Of a stretch of 64,000 nucleotides of DNA, positions 7,295-64,000 are shown in pieces (within the stretch, counting starts at the first letter, position 1; each line of letters starts with the position of its first letter). The notes beneath the pieces were generated by a model, which was not told where the DNA came from, searched no databases, and was given only the letters and a program-made list of their open reading frames with translations. Made by a program: the position numbers and the translations under genes. Where the stretch lies: the sequence record NC_027356.1; one strand, written 5' to 3'. The stretch comes from Escherichia phage DT57C.

Positions 7295-7325
7295 AGATTC
7301 ATAAATTTGAGAGAGGAGTTTAAAT

Positions 7326-8030
7326 ATGGCTGGTTCTCGCAGAAAGAAACATATCCATGAAATCCCGGATGAAGTCTTTAAAAAGGTTATAGAGCATCTG
7401 GAGAACGGTGGTACTAAGAAAGCAGCATGTGAAATGCTCGGCGTATCATCCAATCCGACTATGGAAAGGATGATAGAAGAGTGGCAAGATCGCCAAATTC
7501 AAGTTGCCGAGATGAAGAAAAAGAAACGTGGCACACTCATTGAAGGCATCGAGTTAGCTAACGTTATTGAACAGTATTTATCTGGTGATTCTTTTGAAGA
7601 GATTGCCGATCGTAATTACCGCTCTGTAGCAATGGTTAAATCTGTTCTGGAACGATATGGTGCTCTACTTCGTTTAAACGATATTGTAGACCCGTTGAAT
7701 CCACCAATTATTCCTGATGATGCTGTAGCAGAAGAATTTGAAGTAGGTGAGCTAGTTTGGGTTCCTGGATACCAGTGTATCGGTGAAATCAAAAAAGCAA
7801 TGGATAATCCTGTTGGTTGTTACCGTGTATGGCTTCTATCAGAAGGCAAACAACAGAACGTTCATTATATGAATTACGAGCTGGCTTCTGTTAAACATCT
7901 GGAAAAGCTAGGGGTTGACGTAAAATCTCTGGGGTATAAATGGTCCCGGGAAGAAGTTATCACACTGATTAACGAAGCTGTTAAGGCTGCCTTGAAACTT
8001 GATAAAGAAAAAGGAAAACGCCGTGAGTAA
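7326..8030 (+). CDS. hypothetical protein with N-terminal helix-turn-helix-like segment
   Basis: 234 aa; GTKKAACEMLGVSSNPTMERMI resembles an HTH. Confidence 0.55.
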   Translation: MAGSRRKKHIHEIPDEVFKKVIEHLENGGTKKAACEMLGVSSNPTMERMIEEWQDRQIQVAEMKKKKRGTLIEGIELANVIEQYLSGDSFEEIADRNYRSVAMVKSVLERYGALLRLNDIVDPLNPPIIPDDAVAEEFEVGELVWVPGYQCIGEIKKAMDNPVGCYRVWLLSEGKQQNVHYMNYELASVKHLEKLGVDVKSLGYKWSREEVITLINEAVKAALKLDKEKGKRRE

Positions 8031-9140: not shown

Positions 9141-9449
9141 ATGAGCGATCAGGTAAACCAAAACTATGAAGGACACGTTGATGATCAGTCAATCCTTCTA
9201 TGGGAAAAAGAAGGGGAACAAGTAAGATTGACAGTATCTGAATTTCGTGGGAATCTATACATGGGAATTAGGTATTGGCTCCAGGATATTACTGGAGAAT
9301 GGTTTCCAACGAAATCCGGCTTCTCTTTTCCGTACACTCTAGAAACTACTTCGCAGCTATTCTATGCTTTTACGCAAATCCTTAGTGAATCTGAGGTTTT
9401 ACATGAAGTACAGAAACGAGCTGAAGAACTCAAAGCCAAGAATGCCTAG
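9141..9449 (+). CDS. hypothetical protein (102 aa)
   Basis: ORF bounded by terminators. Confidence 0.45.
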   Translation: MSDQVNQNYEGHVDDQSILLWEKEGEQVRLTVSEFRGNLYMGIRYWLQDITGEWFPTKSGFSFPYTLETTSQLFYAFTQILSESEVLHEVQKRAEELKAKNA

Positions 9450-9465
9450 TTCTTGGCTTTTTCTT
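9435..9465 (+). terminator. rho-independent terminator
   Basis: stem GCCAAGAA/TTCTTGGC followed by TTTTT. Confidence 0.6.
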
Positions 9466-9476
9466 TATAAATGTAT

Positions 9477-9505
9477 TTGCTTTCAACTCAGTTTTGATAT
9501 ATAAT
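9477..9505 (+). promoter_or_regulatory. T5-type sigma70 early promoter
   Basis: TTGCTT, 17 bp, TATAAT. Confidence 0.65.
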
Positions 9506-9519
9506 ATTTATATAAATTA

Positions 9520-9735
9520 ATGAGAGGATCAATCATGGCAATGACAGTAACACTTCCCAAGATTCAAGCAAAACTTAATCTGCTTTCCACAGCACGCATT
9601 AATTATCAAGATAACATAGGCACAGTAAATCAAAAGGCGTACAAAGATGCGTTTCTGAAAGAATCTGCTGATTTGATGGATATGGTTACACAATATAATA
9701 AAGAACTCAAGATGGAAATCGCCGATGATGAATAA
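9520..9735 (+). CDS. hypothetical protein (71 aa)
   Basis: ORF overlapping the ligase A start. Confidence 0.4.
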   Translation: MRGSIMAMTVTLPKIQAKLNLLSTARINYQDNIGTVNQKAYKDAFLKESADLMDMVTQYNKELKMEIADDE

Positions 9736-44341: not shown

Positions 44342-44827
44342 TTATCTGCGAAGTGACCTACGTGGAGGCTGATACCTCACTGTTACATTTATTTCTGCTA
44401 AACCATATGGGGCCAGTAGACCCTCATCTGTACTAACTGATGTAATGCTCATATCAGTCGCCTCACATGGGAAGGTCGATCCATTAGGTTTACTAACAGT
44501 ATATTCTAAATTTCCACCTGTGTCAATAACGGTTTTTATATCCGCTACGAGTTTTTCAAGCTGCTCTTGAATGTCTGTTTTCTCTTTATCATAGACCAGA
44601 ATTGGAAGTTCTAAAAACATCCACTGTTGACCTGAAGGAAGATACTGCCCAGTTTCAGTTCCGATATGAACTGCAACATAAGGAAACTCTCGTATCTCCT
44701 CAAACTTATAAGTTTGACGTGAGACGTTTCCATACAAGTTATTAAAATATTCATCTGGTTGAGAGCCATCCATTTGTTGGGCTATTCGGTCAACCAGAGC
44801 TTGCGCTATACTTGTTCTGTGATCCAT
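44342..44827 (-). CDS. putative tail terminator / tail completion protein
   Basis: 161 aa; position between head-completion genes and tail tube gene. Confidence 0.45.
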   Translation of the reverse strand: MDHRTSIAQALVDRIAQQMDGSQPDEYFNNLYGNVSRQTYKFEEIREFPYVAVHIGTETGQYLPSGQQWMFLELPILVYDKEKTDIQEQLEKLVADIKTVIDTGGNLEYTVSKPNGSTFPCEATDMSITSVSTDEGLLAPYGLAEINVTVRYQPPRRSLRR

Positions 44828-54765: not shown

Positions 54766-55032
54766 ATGAAAAAGTTTGTAATTGCACTAGTTGCCACAGT
54801 TATGTTATCTGGTTGTGCACCTGCTCCCAAACCATTTTGTACGGGATTTGTAAAATCTTTTGGTGGTGCGGGAGAGGAACATTACGGTCTCAAGGTTCAA
54901 AAAGTTCGTATTAAGGGAGATCGCTTTCCAGTAGTACAGCTCCGTACTAAGTTTGGGTGGTGGGATCTCAGTCAGTTTGACCTTAAATATGGTGATTGTA
55001 AATTTAAACTAGAGCAATCTAATTACCTGTAA
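54766..55032 (+). CDS. llp: lytic-conversion lipoprotein (Llp-like, receptor-blocking)
   Basis: 88 aa; signal peptide plus lipobox MLSGC; small Cys-containing mature part; divergent from the RBP gene. Confidence 0.7.
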   Translation: MKKFVIALVATVMLSGCAPAPKPFCTGFVKSFGGAGEEHYGLKVQKVRIKGDRFPVVQLRTKFGWWDLSQFDLKYGDCKFKLEQSNYL

Positions 55033-55208
55033 TTAGTATAAAACAAAAAGACATCCAAGTAAACTAAATTTTTTATTTCTTGGATGGTATATTGGCATAA
55101 ACCACTATGTAAGAAAAGTAGAAGTCCTTCTAGGAGTCCATAAGCACGGTTGGTTATGCACAAATTGTAGAATACTTTAAATATCACATTTATAGGAGCA
55201 TGAAAGAT

Positions 55209-55337
55209 ATGTCAAACAAGAGAAAAAGTAGACGCGGAGAAGTGTATGAGAGTTGGGTTAATAGTTTTGGACTTGGGACTATCCTATTTTTTATTTTCGT
55301 AGGTTTTTGGTTGGCAGCTATGGCGGGGTGGATTTAA
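55209..55337 (+). CDS. small membrane protein (42 aa)
   Basis: RBS AGGAG; basic N-terminus then one hydrophobic helix; TAATG coupling to the next ORF; below the ORF-track cutoff. Confidence 0.35.
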   Translation: MSNKRKSRRGEVYESWVNSFGLGTILFFIFVGFWLAAMAGWI

Positions 55338-55444
55338 TGGAATGGGTAATTGTTACATTGCTAGGGATTGTGATTATTGGGCAATGTATTTTAGATAATC
55401 ACTTAGCTAGAATTGAAACTTTACTAACGGAGAAACGTAAATGA
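55337..55444 (+). CDS. small membrane protein (35 aa)
   Basis: hydrophobic helix VIVTLLGIVIIG; ATGA coupling to the next ORF. Confidence 0.35.
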   Translation: MEWVIVTLLGIVIIGQCILDNHLARIETLLTEKRK

Positions 55445-55635
55445 TGGAAGTAGTAGCTACACTAATAGTAATACAAGTCTGGGCAACTTTCATTGTTTCT
55501 TATAACGCGTATGTTCGCCTAAAAACTCTAGAGGCTCAAGTAAAACAGCAACAAGTTACTCTAGAAAAGCTAGTACTACTGCAACGTTGTGATAGTACCC
55601 GCATTTTGCAAATTGAGAGGGAATTAGATGTTTAG
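55441..55635 (+). CDS. small membrane protein (64 aa)
   Basis: N-terminal hydrophobic helix followed by coiled-coil-like segment. Confidence 0.4.
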   Translation: MMEVVATLIVIQVWATFIVSYNAYVRLKTLEAQVKQQQVTLEKLVLLQRCDSTRILQIERELDV

Positions 55636-55873
55636 TATTATACTTGCTTTTATTATCGGGGTGCTTGCGGGAATTTTCGGAATGACTGCGGCTATTAACA
55701 AGCATCGCAAATATATCGCGGAAGTATCGCGGGAGATTGCGGAAAGGGAGCGGAAGTTTGACGAGAAACGTGCGGAGTTCGAACGGGAGTGGAGTGATGG
55801 TTCTCGGGCGTCGCGGAAGAGATTTCGTGAGTTTAGACCTGAACATCGGTTTGATGACCATTCTATGCGCTAA
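55628..55873 (+). CDS. small membrane protein (81 aa)
   Basis: N-terminal TM helix IILAFIIGVLAGIFG then highly charged Arg/Glu-rich tail. Confidence 0.4.
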   Translation: MFSIILAFIIGVLAGIFGMTAAINKHRKYIAEVSREIAERERKFDEKRAEFEREWSDGSRASRKRFREFRPEHRFDDHSMR

Positions 55874-55985
55874 TTGGGAAATCTCGAAATTTCATAAGAT
55901 TACACATGGAGGTGTGCTCACCGCCGGAGGCGAAAATACTTAGTCTGCTAACCGCCACCCCCCGTTACTATTACTCTGCTAACTA

Positions 55986-56018
55986 TTTCACCTTGCAACC
56001 ATTTTAATTGCAAGGTGA
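55986..56018. terminator. bidirectional hairpin terminator between convergent operons
   Basis: 12-bp perfect stem TTCACCTTGCAA/TTGCAAGGTGAA. Confidence 0.6.
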
Positions 56019-56038
56019 AACAAATTCAACTGTAATTA

Positions 56039-56773
56039 TTACGCTACTTTTAATTTCTCAATATATTGTTGTGGGCTGCAACTATATTCTGCGCGCTCCT
56101 CCTCGGTCATACCTTCCCAACATAATTGCAAGCGGTCGGCTAGGAACTGATAATCATTATCATCTTCAAGAGATTCATCAATAAAGGTTTCGCCGATCAA
56201 TGTGACGCCTATTGATAGAATATCGTTAACGGCTTGCGCGTCCAGCGTTTTAAATCCATATGCCGCCGCCGCTGATAATACGCCTTTATGATCATCAATC
56301 ATCGTGAAATCAGCGTTCGGATATAGCTGTTTGAATAGCTCAAAATAATGGCTTTTATATATAGCGTCTTTACTGTGGTATATTTCGCTAACCTTATCAG
56401 CCGTAAAATATTTGTGAAGTGTATCGCGGGAAAATACGCGGATATTGCTATTCCCACGCCCTCGCAGACCTTGTTTGCGCAAATAATAATAATCCGACTT
56501 ACTCATCAGGCGAGCGGTGCAAATAATGTTTAACGTGTTGGCGTCATTCATGCATTGGCGCATATAGGTAACGAGCGGCAAAAGCGTATCCTGCATTATT
56601 AACTCATGTTTGCACGCTTCATTTTTATACTTATTTAAATCTAAATCGCCTTCAATATCAAAGCAAGGCGCTACACGGTGGGCGGAGTTAATGATCGTGC
56701 CGTCCAGATCCCAAATCATTACGCGGGAAATATGCGGGTAATTGCGGGAAATATTCTTTTTATCTTGATTCAT
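56039..56773 (-). CDS. dmp: 5'-deoxyribonucleotidase (HAD family, T5 Dmp-like)
   Basis: 244 aa; HAD motif I DLDGTI; size and position match T5 dmp (memory). Confidence 0.7.
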   Translation of the reverse strand: MNQDKKNISRNYPHISRVMIWDLDGTIINSAHRVAPCFDIEGDLDLNKYKNEACKHELIMQDTLLPLVTYMRQCMNDANTLNIICTARLMSKSDYYYLRKQGLRGRGNSNIRVFSRDTLHKYFTADKVSEIYHSKDAIYKSHYFELFKQLYPNADFTMIDDHKGVLSAAAAYGFKTLDAQAVNDILSIGVTLIGETFIDESLEDDNDYQFLADRLQLCWEGMTEEERAEYSCSPQQYIEKLKVA

Positions 56774-60509: not shown

Positions 60510-61135
60510 ATCGTCGTCTCCTTATAAGGTTAATAAGTTTGCCGCCGATGGGCTTTAAAATGCACCTGATTTTTAAAGAGCGCGGCGGTAAACTTTCCGC
60601 CGTGTAGTTCGTCATTGCCGCCCTACGAGATAAATAATAGGGAATACCCAAAAAAGGTGCAACCTTAATTTTGTAAAGAAATGTAAAGAAAGCAAATACC
60701 CGCACCGCGTCCGGCGATCGCCCAAGTTTAAAGGAAACAGGCGCGCGGATACCATAAAACCGAGCTGATTGGCAAGTAATTTTTTCATTTTTATTTGCCT
60801 TGCCCTACTTGACAAAACTTAAAAAGCTCGTGGTGACGATAAACGGGCTATCCCTTTATGATGGGATACCTGAAAAATTTACCGCGTTGTAGGACGTTTT
60901 AGGCCGCTTATCTTCGATTTAACAAATATTTAACAAAAGCAAAATTGAAAAATAGTTTGAGAAGGTATTGACTTTTTAAAATCAAGACTAAACGAGTTAT
61001 TTTAAAAAATTAATTAATTGACTTTTATTTGTTGTTGTGTAGTAGAAAGATAGCAGACTAATAATTGCTAGAATGATAATCATGCTGGTGATTGTAACAG
61101 ACTGAACTATTAGCAGACTACTGATCCCGGAAAAT

Positions 61136-61175
61136 CTCATTAGCCAACTAACTATCTCATTAGCCAACTAACTAT
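61136..61175. repeat. 20-bp direct repeat, 2 copies
   Basis: CTCATTAGCCAACTAACTAT twice in tandem. Confidence 0.8.
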
Positions 61176-61185
61176 TTCATAAGTT

Positions 61186-61365
61186 ATAATAACTATAAAA
61201 ATAATCACCGTTAAAATAATCACTATAAAAATAATCACCATTAAAATAATAACTATAGAAATAATCACCATTATAATAATCACCATTAAAATAATCACTA
61301 TAAAAATAATCACCATTAAAATAATCACTATAAAAATAATCACCATTATTATAATCACTATAAGA
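61186..61365. repeat. 15-bp tandem iteron-like array, 12 units
   Basis: alternating ATAATCACCATTAAA and ATAATCACTATAAAA units. Confidence 0.9.
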
Positions 61366-61401
61366 AACTATCGGCTTAAGTGAGAACCACTATCATTTAA
61401 G

Positions 61402-61510
61402 TTATCCACAACGTTATCCACAGCACAAAATGATTTGACACGATAGGCGGCGATATAAAGATTTATCCACAGACTTATCCACAGGTTATCCTACTGTATA
61501 TTTATCCAGG
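61402..61510 (+). promoter_or_regulatory. DnaA-box cluster A (4 perfect TTATCCACA plus 2 degenerate)
   Basis: TTATCCACA at 61402, 61414, 61463, 61475; variants TTATCCTAC and TTATCCAGG. Confidence 0.7.
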
Positions 61511-61880
61511 GTAAAAAGATAGTGTTTACAACTGCAATCAATTTTGAGCGGCCTAAAACGCTTTCTAACGAGCTGATCGCTGTAGGGTAATATTAAAGTA
61601 AAGCCTTTACCCGTCGGCCTAGAGGCTTCGCCGTGTTTTGCTCTTTACTGCACCGCTGCGCGGTTAGCATAAAACTAGGTGTTAGGCAAGAAAAATAAAA
61701 AGTAAAGTAAACGTTGCCCCTAGAAAGAAAATAATTTTACCGGTAACATCGAAAGCGGGTAATAATTAACCTAATGTAAAGTTTTGTAAGGCCCGCCATA
61801 ATCAGCGGCCTTTTTTGTTATACTGCCCTTACACCGTTTAAGGACGGTTAAAAATTTCCCGAAAAATTTGGAGGCTTAAA

Positions 61881-62060
61881 ATGGTTATTTTTCGATCTAT
61901 TCTGGCGGGTATCTTGGGCGCTATTTTAACTCTATTTGCTACCGCTTACGGTATTCAAGATTCTTATTGCGGTTTAGTAAATACTAAACCTATGGTTATT
62001 ATTGGCGCGGGTATCGCTGTTTTTTCTTATTTGCTGGGCTGCATGAATAAAGGAGAATAA
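61881..62060 (+). CDS. small membrane protein (59 aa)
   Basis: RBS GGAGG; two hydrophobic segments; first ORF of a coupled small-gene cassette. Confidence 0.4.
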   Translation: MVIFRSILAGILGAILTLFATAYGIQDSYCGLVNTKPMVIIGAGIAVFSYLLGCMNKGE

Positions 62061-62062
62061 AA

Positions 62063-62275
62063 ATGATCCGCAACGTTTCTCTTGCTCGTTCCAAAGGTTT
62101 TAAGCTGGTGGATGTAAACACGTTCGAGCGTCCTGGTTGTAAAATCGAATATATAGCGCGGAATAAAAACGCTTTCCGCGTTACAGAAAAGAGATTCGAT
62201 AAACGCGGCAACGTGATAGCTGAAACGGTTAAATATTTTGCCACCTTTTACGCGGCCTTTCGTGGGGTATTATGA
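62063..62275 (+). CDS. hypothetical protein (70 aa)
   Basis: track ORF; RBS AAAGGAGAA upstream. Confidence 0.4.
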   Translation: MIRNVSLARSKGFKLVDVNTFERPGCKIEYIARNKNAFRVTEKRFDKRGNVIAETVKYFATFYAAFRGVL

Positions 62276-62397
62276 AGAGCGTTGTTATTGTTATCCTTGC
62301 AATGGTTGGCGGTTTTACCACCACCTTGTTTAGAAATGATCCTCTTTTGCTAGGGATCTTTATGCTTTTATCTGGTTATCTGATCGGGAGGTTATAA
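62272..62397 (+). CDS. small membrane protein (about 41 aa)
   Basis: ATGA overlap with the upstream ORF; hydrophobic; my manual reading of this stretch disagreed by 1 nt with the ORF track, so coordinates are approximate. Confidence 0.25.
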   Translation: MKSVVIVILAMVGGFTTTLFRNDPLLLGIFMLLSGYLIGRL

Positions 62398-62398
62398 A

Positions 62399-62743
62399 AT
62401 GGTGATTTATGAAGGTGATCGCCTTGTTGCTGATTGCCGTCCGGCATTGTTAGCAAACTACTTAAACCAGCTTTCGCCAGTATATAAAGGCGTTATAAAT
62501 ATTTATGAAGGCGGGGCGCATTATAAGATTAATGCGGTCGTTGCCCGTGAACTAGCGTTTCAATTTTTAACCTTTTCATCTTGCAATATTCAGGTCATGG
62601 GTGAGGCGTTAATTGCAGAAAATGAAGATGATTTTATTAATATCTTTCGCAAGATATGCACCGAGCGCCTGATAATGAAAGGGGCATATATTCAATCCAC
62701 TGCGGATAGTATTGAAACGGCTTTTCGAAAGGTGGCACAATGA
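62399..62743 (+). CDS. hypothetical protein (114 aa)
   Basis: track ORF; coupled start; no recognisable motif. Confidence 0.45.
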   Translation: MVIYEGDRLVADCRPALLANYLNQLSPVYKGVINIYEGGAHYKINAVVARELAFQFLTFSSCNIQVMGEALIAENEDDFINIFRKICTERLIMKGAYIQSTADSIETAFRKVAQ

Positions 62744-62881
62744 AGCTATATATTTTCGCGGGTAATGTTGAGGCTGCAAATGATTCCGCTGGTGGCGATA
62801 GCGTTCGCCATTATTGGCAAAATTATATTTACTAGGCGTAATGATCACGGGGCACAACTATCAGGGAGTGCCCCTGATTCT

Positions 62882-62904
62882 CAAATGAGAATGATTCTCA
62901 TTTG
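62882..62904. promoter_or_regulatory. perfect 23-bp palindrome, operator-like
   Basis: CAAATGAGAAT-G-ATTCTCATTTG; same AATGAGAAT core as the 23-bp tandem array. Confidence 0.6.
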
Positions 62905-63079
62905 ACCGCGCCCGCGATGGTTAGCACACTAATGATTAGGGTGTTACGTGTCGCCTTGTGTGATCGTTAGCGGGCTAACTAATTTTCAAGCCTCCTCCAG
63001 ATTTGCCCTTGTTTTAGTATCCCCATCAAAATAAAACGCGTTAGAAAGCGATTCAGGGCGTTTTAGGCCTATATTAGAA

Positions 63080-63208
63080 TTATCCACTGCGTAGGAATAC
63101 TGTATATTTATACAGTAGAATAACCTGGGGATAAGTCGGTGGATAACGCTTCAAAATGGCTAGAATTTTGTCAAGGCAAATCGTGCTGTTGATAAGTCTG
63201 TGGATAAC
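63080..63208 (-). promoter_or_regulatory. DnaA-box cluster B, inverted relative to cluster A
   Basis: TTATCCACT at 63080 (+); minus-strand TTATCCACC (63138-63146) and TTATCCACA (63199-63207); 17-mer TTATCCACAGACTTATC shared in inverted orientation with 61463-61479; 8-bp-arm inverted repeat at 63099-63116. Confidence 0.65.
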
Positions 63209-63230
63209 TTAAATAACAGTGTTTCTCACT

Positions 63231-63502
63231 TCCGTTTTTAAATGCGAATCATTATCATTTGCATTCCACTTCTTAAATGAGAATCATTTCACTTCTTGAA
63301 TAGTTCTCATTCCCTTTCTTAAATGAGAATCATTTCACTTCTTGAATAGTTCTCATTTCACTTCTTGAATAGTTCTCATTCCACTTCTTAAATGAGAATC
63401 ATTCCACTTCTTAAATGAGAATCATTCCACCTCTTAAATGAGAATGATTATCATTCGCATTCCACTTCTTAAATGCGAATGATAATCATTCTCATTCGCA
63501 TT
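63231..63502. repeat. 23-bp tandem array (8 units) with palindromic flanks
   Basis: units CCACTTCTTAAATGAGAATCATT and TCACTTCTTGAATAGTTCTCATT in order A-B-A-B-B-A-A-A at 63266-63449, flanked by AATGCGAAT...GCATT palindromic elements. Confidence 0.9.
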
Positions 63503-63510
63503 CCGGCGAG

Positions 63511-63526
63511 CAGGGCAATTGCCCTG
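63511..63526. repeat. 16-bp perfect palindrome
   Basis: CAGGGCAATTGCCCTG. Confidence 0.8.
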
Positions 63527-63530
63527 CGCT

Positions 63531-63755
63531 TATGTGCAAATCCGACAATTGCTCCAAGGGTTACGCGAGGGCATGTATGTGCAAATCCGACCCATTTTTT
63601 GGTAGTGTGCAAATCCGACCCCAAAAATTTATAAATTCGTGAGAGTGACAAATCTGTCTCCCAAAAACTCCAGCAATCACGAACTGCGTTCGAATCCTGT
63701 GGGGTATGTGCAAATCCGACACGGTTTTTCTAGGATTAAGATGTGCGAATCCGAT
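63531..63755 (+). repeat. dispersed direct repeats of a 13-16-bp motif (4 perfect plus 1 variant)
   Basis: (T)ATGTGCAAATCCGAC at 63534, 63579, 63607, 63708; variant GTGCGAATCCGAT at 63743; each followed by a short T- or A-run. Confidence 0.8.
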
Positions 63756-64000
63756 GAAATTTTTGTGACTTCGATGAGAGGGTGTGTGATTGTATAGGTT
63801 TGAGGAGAAGATGAGAGAGCGAGAAAAATTTTGGGGCTAGAAGTGTATGGGCGCAGGATTGGTGCGGAGCACCTGATTTGCGGGGGTTTTGGGGGATAGT
63901 GGAGATAATTTGGGGAAATTTGAGATAGGTGCAGAAAAAGTAAAATTTTATTAGCTAAAGGGGGCAATATAGCTTGACAATTGAAAATTCTTGTGGCTCT

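Follow-up and report, generated by a model that had tools for sequence, protein, structure and literature searches.

Entry of phage T5 DNA into the cell stops at about 8%, an arrest that has been unexplained since the 1960s. The stop occurs without protein synthesis and is absent in FhuA liposomes, where ejection completes (Davison, bioRxiv 10.1101/866236), so that a host factor is to be expected, one whose identity Davison describes as unsolved. The T5 GenBank record (AY587007) lists in this region, in order, palindrome D; inverted repeat D′ (IRD′), direct repeats B and inverted repeat C′ (IRC′); direct repeats C copies 1–4 (DRC1–4) with palindromes E–I (palE–palI); palindrome J (palJ); the ‘major single-stranded nick 1, 7.9%’; and direct repeats D (DRD). 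This stretch, with DRC1–4 and palE–palI, is known as ‘Repeat Region 3’ (Davison, bioRxiv 10.1101/866236; Heusterspreute 1987 as cited by Davison), which is conserved among 25 T5-like phages and is regarded as the likely injection-stop signal, with DnaA on neighbouring boxes proposed as the stopping host factor and with the function of the other repeats and palindromes described as ‘impossible to guess’, or as possible A1 cleavage sites (Davison, bioRxiv 10.1101/866236). Here we analyse the counterpart of this cluster, a tandem array of 23-bp repeats at 63231–63502 of a 64,000-nt stretch of Escherichia phage DNA (the window; sequence record NC_027356.1, phage DT57C), whose coordinates correspond to 44419–108418 of the record of Escherichia phage DT571/2 (KM979355), a Tequintavirus and T5 relative. 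The motif repeated in this array is a Fur box by sequence, indistinguishable from the Fur boxes of the host.

An initial annotation of the window had suggested a possible relation of the array to the injection stop of T5, and this link holds by homology, as the array aligned with T5 9468–9637 at 86% mean column identity. Apart from two gaps of 23 and 69 bp, both made up of whole repeat units, the two sequences show no large difference, and DT571/2 thus has four 23-bp units more than T5. The surroundings follow the T5 order as well, with the DnaA-box module IRD′-spacer-IRC′ adjoining the array directly on the left and with palJ, the 7.9% nick and the DRD repeats on its right. Judged by alignment and order of elements, the array is the DT571/2 version of the T5 injection-stop repeat and palindrome cluster, already known as a repeat cluster: the two are homologous and collinear and agree both in their two unit types and in their long palindromic units. 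Besides its additional units, DT571/2 differs from T5 in containing a perfect 25-nt inverted repeat, imperfect in T5, and in having an isolated upstream palindrome that is absent in T5. The last 1.3 kb of the window are 99.8% identical to KM979355, and 54900–56100 is 100% identical to 99318–100518 of that record. The terminal repeat starts at window position 55916, is 8085 bp long and ends at the physical right end of the genome. The array in the window is the right-terminal-repeat copy, and an identical copy lies at 7316–7587 in the left terminal repeat, which is the one that enters the cell first. Open reading frames over the array reach 53–60 amino acids at most, and no gene is annotated there in DT571/2 or T5.

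The elements of the array and its isolated relative are as follows, where scores are those of a Fur matrix with symmetric weights derived from 9–10 classical iron boxes (PMC10665472):

62882–62904: isolated palindrome, CAAATGAGAATGATTCTCATTTG, with Fur-like sites at 62881–62899 and 62887–62905 scoring 13.3–13.5 and 16.5–17.0.
63236–63266: first long palindromic unit, AAATGCGAATCATTATCATTTGCATT, homologue of T5 DRC copy 1 / palE.
63262, 63308, 63377, 63400 and 63423 (unit starts): five A-type 23-bp units, …TTAAATGAGAATCATT / …CTTCTTAAATGAGAATCATT, scoring 11.6–13.1.
63285, 63331 and 63354 (unit starts): three B-type 23-bp units, …TTGAATAGTTCTCATT / …CTTCTTGAATAGTTCTCATT, with an inverted, degenerate core.
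63432–63502: two 35-bp long units, homologue of T5 DRC3/4 and palG/H/I, with the strongest Fur-like sites.

The eight contiguous 23-bp units in two variants described in the initial annotation are real (63262–63445), both by direct reading and in Tandem Repeats Finder, which reported a period of 23 over 63262–63449 with 8.2 copies, 82% matches and the consensus CATTCCACTTCTTAAATGAGAAT, along with further calls of period 69 (2.6 copies) and of period 35 (2.1 copies at 63423–63497). Equally real are the related palindromic elements on either side (63236–63266 and 63432–63502), and the isolated palindrome is a perfect one of odd length, 23 bp. It is preceded by a GC hairpin (62849–62874) and lies 3′ of the last rightward pre-early open reading frame. 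What did not stand was the description of the units as half-sites. Instead, each unit is a complete weak-to-moderate site, since the 13-nt core is nearly palindromic on its own (AATGA-GAA-TCATT) and coincides with the centre of one whole dimer site; the B-type unit carries the A core inverted and with two altered bases (AATGAGAACTATT on the minus strand). Likewise, the isolated palindrome, described as a full two-half-site version of the core, consists of two overlapping sites shifted by 6 bp (62881 and 62887). The same arrangement recurs in the first long unit, where Fur-like sites at 63238 (16.0–16.5) and 63244 (15.3–15.8) are 6 bp apart, and in the terminal long units, where sites at 63434, 63440, 63469, 63475 and 63481 score 15.9–20.9. 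Allowing up to two mismatches, the core AATGAGAATCATT occurs 23 times in the window where 3.76 are expected, an approximately 6-fold excess that none of 100 shuffles reached, and 17 of these 23 matches fall within 62884–63496.

Several established classes of element were considered and found no support. The units are contiguous, without the unique spacers of a CRISPR array, and the Rfam family CRISPR-DR34 scored 21.6 bits against a threshold of 35. No known RNA family reached threshold over 60800–64000, where the matches were hairpin-driven microRNA-like ones and the CRISPR repeat, with E values of 0.15–0.98. In form, the array resembles the centromere-like arrays parC/ParR of R1 and sopC/SopB of F, which consist of many tandem sites in both orientations bound by a dimeric protein; centromere-like and iteron arrays are suited to building higher-order nucleoprotein complexes. 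Unlike plasmid and phage partition sites and iteron arrays, however, the window array has no partition or replication-initiator gene nearby, and the eight neighbouring pre-early proteins match no Par or Rep family.

The core AATGAGAATCATT is one base off the centre of the 19-bp Fur consensus GATAATGATAATCATTATC. A published aerobactin-type iron box, GATAATGAGAATCATTATT, contains it without mismatch, as do the Fur boxes of Acinetobacter baumannii, which read TTAAATGAGAATCATTTTCATTTAT. The window has four matches to GATAATGATAATCATTATC at 16/19 positions against 0.10 expected, two of them, GCGAATGATAATCATTCTC, at 63440–63458 (minus strand) and 63475–63493 (plus strand). With the Fur matrix, eight of the ten best sites of the 64-kb window fall within 62881–63499, and repeating the scan without the iron box that contains the phage core left the result unchanged. 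The terminal repeat holds 12 sites scoring at least 14, where 0.31 are expected under a first-order Markov model (maximum of 3 in 300 simulations), and the 56 kb of unique DNA hold none. For comparison with the host we used a sample of 175 kb of E. coli K-12, chosen for its seven Fur-regulated promoters, in which six sites score at least 15, compared with seven in 620 bp of phage DNA. The best scores at the seven promoters range from 10.5 (fecA) to 21.1 (entC), and the phage sites range from 11.6 to 20.9; even the A-type units fall within the 10.5–13.7 of the fepA/fes, fhuA and fecA operators.

The reciprocal comparison gave the same picture. A matrix derived only from phage DNA (135 distinct 21-mers, at most two mismatches from the core, from 26 T5-like phages) was run over the 175 kb of E. 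coli, and its top five matches were the fecI, entC/fepB, fhuA, fecA and cirA promoters. Fur promoters, 1.07% of the bases scanned, contained eight of its ten best matches, and all seven such promoters were matched; among 500 column-permuted matrices, the best placed 3/10 there and none equalled the real one. Together, the forward and reciprocal tests indicate that, at the level of sequence, the phage motif does not differ in specificity from the Fur box. The best match of the phage matrix outside known Fur promoters is a palindromic site in the map-rpsB intergenic region near tff (GCAAATTGAGAATCATTCTGAATTTCG, 44578–44604 of the E. coli K-12 sequence L164), where two sites offset by 6 bp score 17.1 and 12.1; this could be a Fur site so far overlooked or a false positive.

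The arrangement of the sites is also that of Fur. Overlapping sites exactly 6 (or 3) bases apart are typical of Fur clusters (Chen et al. 2007, PMC2189734), and a crystal structure has two Fur dimers on one 19-bp box, in agreement with the 6-bp-shifted groups that we found at 62881/62887, 63238/63244, 63434/63440 and 63469/63475/63481. Two features never vary within the phage units, namely the G of AATG (both strands) and the AAT/ATT tracts, and in the solved Fur complex these positions are read by Arg57, Tyr56 and Lys15. Zur, MntR and other metal regulators were considered as well; the Zur box has only the outer AAATG…CATTT in common with the phage motif. The binding protein, which the initial annotation had left unnamed, is thereby narrowed to a candidate, Fur, and the ~260-bp array and the upstream palindrome together offer about 13 overlapping predicted Fur sites, eight of which make up four 6-bp-shifted groups. 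The E. coli clusters at entC/fepB, fepD/entS, fecI, fhuA and cirA (PMC2189734) are alike in motif, scores and 6-bp offset. They differ in extent, covering at most ~140 bp where the phage sites span ~260 bp, and in arrangement, as the phage array is a regular 23/35-bp tandem without an overlapping promoter and with a GAGAAT/GCGAAT bias, located in the non-coding terminal repeat of a virulent phage with no evident gene for it to regulate. In the accessible literature, a scope that excludes Davison 2015 (PMC4743489), we found no paper linking T5-like phages with Fur or iron and none that assigns a binding protein to these repeats, and the identification of the Fur boxes, and of an adjoining LexA-type box described below, appears to be new.

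To see how the array is kept among relatives, we extracted the region from 29 distinct loci and measured the segment from the last DnaA box to the first DRD repeat. In 26 of the 29, among them T5 and further Tequintavirus-type phages infecting E. coli and Salmonella, as well as Klebsiella phage IME260 and Pectobacterium phages My1 and DU_PP_V, the segment is 138–326 bp long and contains 2–11 sites scoring at least 10 (median 8), 1–5 6-bp-shifted pairs and a best site of at least 17.7. The number, order and orientation of units vary freely among these 26, and the motif is constant. The initial annotation had held that an array varying freely in copy number and sequence among relatives, with neither a phenotype nor specific binding, would refute a binding platform. 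Half of this is seen, as copy number does vary freely and the slot has other repeats, or none, in the Vibrio, Serratia and Proteus relatives. The motif itself is kept in 26/26 enterobacterial relatives through changes in unit number and order, which fits the idea of a binding platform. Most relatives, though not T5, additionally have a strong Fur-like site 540–830 bp upstream of DRD1, comparable to the isolated palindrome.

This pattern bears on whether the array has any function of its own. It might be a slippage-prone tandem repeat carried along with the DnaA boxes, the nick site and the DRD repeats, as even close relatives diverge widely in copy number and in the order of units (T5 with its four fewer units being one example) and distant family members have other repeats, or none, in the same slot. 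We consider this very improbable, because the motif positions hardly vary over 103–135 distinct units, drawn from 26 phages that belong to several genera, and the remaining positions drift, because each of these 26 phages has a site scoring at least 17.7, because a separate motif copy is found upstream in most of them, and because the terminal repeat is enriched in sites (12 against 0.31 expected).

In more distant relatives the slot has other contents. Vibrio phage Gary (MW344054) keeps DRD-type repeats (GTGCAAATCCGAC), a GC-rich element next to them, DnaA boxes and the CTGTATATTTATACAG palindrome. Its slot (~265–355 of L168), between the GC-rich element and the DnaA boxes, is without a Fur-like site and is filled by some eleven tandem units of 8 bp, TCTATCCW. 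In Serratia phage Kamaji, the slot is occupied by TAATCACC-type repeats, and DRD, the DnaA boxes and the LexA-like box are kept, and in Proteus phage 1 there is no array in the 2.2 kb examined, where the LexA-like box is kept. As the slot is kept but refilled in distant relatives, it is old, and the Fur-like filling is specific to one large lineage.

These losses can be compared with the divergence of A2, the phage protein that is the likeliest binder if the array is not meant for a host protein. Under such an explanation, the array would be a platform for a phage protein, most plausibly the pre-early dimer A2 with or without A1, which would restart transfer, and the likeness to Fur boxes would reflect coincidence or competition. 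A2 is a DNA-binding dimer needed for second-step transfer, the motif persists down to 57% A2 identity (57–66% in My1 and IME260) and is replaced at 42–50% (Gary and Kamaji), and both the conserved spacer bases and the systematic GAGAAT deviation suggest a specificity beyond that of Fur. The divergence of A2 and the loss of the motif nevertheless give no clean split between a phage and a host binder. A single-sequence model of A2 (predicted local distance difference test score 73.8) is all-helical, with two three-helix modules that weakly match helix-turn-helix, Myb, homeodomain and CENP-B type folds, but these matches are non-significant in a PDB fold search (E > 0.3, best 0.37), and A2 has no Pfam family. 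That A2 could be a Fur-like protein was rejected, as the model is without the mixed helix/strand fold of Fur. A2 would have to recognise a motif indistinguishable from the Fur box, 6-bp-shifted sites included; the phage matrix retrieves Fur operators first in E. coli; no sequence-specific binding by A2 is reported in the accessible literature; and the stop needs no phage protein synthesis, so that A2 could account for the release but not for the arrest. We therefore regard a phage-protein platform as unlikely.

The palindromes raise another explanation, in which the element acts as DNA structure, with hairpins or cruciforms (in the capsid, the channel or single strands) that stall passage or mark a nick or processing site. 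The 63432–63502 units contain the perfect 25-nt inverted repeat (63437–63461 / 63472–63496) and form a hairpin in single-strand fold prediction; the array as a whole is predicted to fold with −51.3 kcal/mol compared with −17.7 for shuffles (z = −10), and the arrays of relatives also outperform shuffles (z of −2.3 to −14). Some palindrome arms vary symmetrically, with ACG/CGT in T5, GCA/TGC in relative L072 and GCG/CGC elsewhere. In addition, one of the two bases that differ between the left and right terminal repeats in 8085 bp is the centre of the isolated palindrome (window 62893 vs left 6978; G on the right, C on the left), which makes the two copies exact reverse complements of each other, and hairpin-mediated flipping would yield such a difference. 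A structural block on DNA still to be injected would also escape a mechanical objection to a cytoplasmic binder that we discuss below. On the other hand, the long perfect inverted repeat is found only in the window phage, the best arms in relatives having 10–19 matched bases in other places and with other loops, and unit number, order and orientation are variable. Asymmetry is common among the palindrome variants, conservation follows the individual positions of the motif, and the array of the Vibrio phage consists of direct 8-bp repeats. Palindromy would be expected anyway for the sites of a dimeric protein, and the completion of ejection in vitro into FhuA liposomes argues against an intrinsic block in the DNA. 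Taken together, we find a purely structural role improbable, more so than a platform for A2.

The host-protein reading, with Fur as the candidate, gains from what adjoins the array on its left. The neighbouring elements, including those that bound it on the right, are:

61378–61509: IRC-spacer-IRD, mirror-image DnaA-box module, T5 Repeat Region 2, with a degenerate LexA-like box at 61492–61509.
63098–63117: LexA (SOS) box-like palindrome, TACTGTATATTTATACAGTA, T5 ‘palindrome D’, at the start of IRD′.
63100–63231: IRD′-spacer-IRC′ module with two DnaA-box pairs (63125–63147 and 63186–63208), aligning with T5 9332–9462.
63510–63529: GC-rich palindrome, GCAGGGCAATTGCCCTGC, T5 palJ (T5 9650–9666).
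63522–63529: nick-site counterpart, CCCTGCGC, formed by the right end of palJ and the next two bases, T5 major 7.9% nick (9661–9668).
63533–63757, plus strand: DRD repeat, TGTGCAAATCCGAC, five copies (nine in T5), the right boundary of the array.

The palindrome at 63098–63117 has one mismatch in 20 to the ideal LexA SOS box, TACTGTATATATATACAGTA (CTGT-N8-ACAG), and is its sole match in the window, where 0.01 are expected. In sequence terms it is a LexA-type (SOS) box and a putative LexA site, and its CTGTATATTTATACAG core recurs in all three of the distant Vibrio, Serratia and Proteus phages described above. The reading of IRD′-spacer-IRC′ as DnaA boxes is Davison's (bioRxiv 10.1101/866236), and LexA and SOS are unmentioned in that preprint. 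The 63100–63231 module is the inverted partner of 61378–61509, the two forming an inverted repeat of 132 nt with 77% complementarity, in addition to a direct repeat there. The second base that differs between the terminal repeats (window 63084 vs left 7169) lies nearby; through it TTATTCAC becomes TTATCCAC, which resembles a DnaA box. Within 400 bp (63098–63502), the array thus lies side by side with four DnaA boxes and a LexA-type box, and this raises our confidence that the resemblance to Fur sites is not accidental.

With these neighbours in mind, we can outline how the array might work. Host Fur-Fe2+, present before infection, would load cooperatively onto the array as the first-step DNA reaches the cytoplasm, a step that would require no phage gene expression, and the 6-bp-shifted groups would be of the kind that binds two Fur dimers on opposite faces of the helix. 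DnaA would load onto the four adjoining DnaA boxes and LexA probably onto the adjoining SOS-like box, so that Fur, DnaA and LexA could assemble into a large nucleoprotein complex at the trailing end of the DNA from the first step. Such a complex may help to hold or insulate the DNA during the pause until the phage proteins A1 and A2 restart transfer, and the pause would become sensitive to the iron state of the host. This scheme shares its logic with the DnaA model of Davison, in which sites at the trailing end of the first-step DNA are likewise captured by a DNA-binding protein that the host already contains; it differs in that the DnaA model concerns another protein and another sequence block, immediately to the left of the array. 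We put the chance that Fur binding is real and biologically used at about even. That Fur is the stop factor itself seems doubtful, its role in the pause being something that we infer. Similarly doubtful is the wider proposal that the stop region is a composite landing pad of a LexA-type box, four DnaA boxes and at least ten Fur boxes, in which Fur would be the missing holding factor or one of several, the pause or its release by A1 and A2 would depend on iron and SOS state, and sites for other factors would have taken the place of the array in distant relatives.

Several observations weigh against Fur as the binder. The phage motif favours GAGAAT or GCGAAT where Fur sites favour GATAAT, and spacer positions (C at −9, TT at −6/−5) are conserved as strongly as the core, for which Fur alone is insufficient. 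Gary, Kamaji and Proteus phage 1 are without a Fur-like array although their hosts share the Fur consensus. No sigma-70 promoter-like site is found in 63231–63502, and 62700–64000 contains four weak ones against 2.9 expected; as 83% of E. coli Fur clusters overlap a promoter, the array is not an ordinary operator, and we rejected both a local-promoter operator and a terminator, neither pattern being present in it. Mechanically, a cytoplasmic protein on DNA that has already entered cannot by itself stop DNA that is being pushed from the capsid. The gene fur is not known to be among the host genes that T5 requires, and Fur is largely inactive in iron-starved cells, that is, when FhuA and FepA are most abundant.

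The presence of Fur and LexA-type boxes beside the DnaA boxes turns the old question of the T5 stop into one of named, purchasable candidate proteins. If Fur binds, a virulent phage would be exploiting a host global regulator in an unusual way, on DNA that has no gene under its control, and infection through iron-regulated receptors would be tied to the iron state of the cell. If it does not, the repeats remain a described, conserved and unexplained feature.

Other repeats and sites in the terminal repeat touch on the same themes. The DRD repeat TGTGCAAATCCGAC is common to T5-like phages of E. coli, Vibrio and Serratia and is among the most widely kept elements of the region; no binding factor has been proposed for it in the accessible literature. 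A second tandem array, at 61186–61358, consists of 11.5 copies of a 15-bp unit, ATAATCACCATTAAA, and flanks IRC-spacer-IRD in a position that mirrors that of the 23-bp array; it is weakly Fur-like, with scores of 10–15, and has TAATCACC in common with the slot repeats of Serratia phage Kamaji. Finally, a double Fur-like site, GGAACTGATAATCATTATCATCTTC, is located inside dmp at 56143–56167, with two sites 6 bp apart scoring 20.8 and 20.9. This corresponds to terminal-repeat positions 228–252, ~230 bp from the genome end that enters first. The double site is absent from Pectobacterium phage My1, is found at the same position in T5 and is stronger in Klebsiella phage IME260 (24.6 and 21.4; Dmp 61% identical), and it could stem from a conserved D-D-N-D-Y-Q coding stretch.

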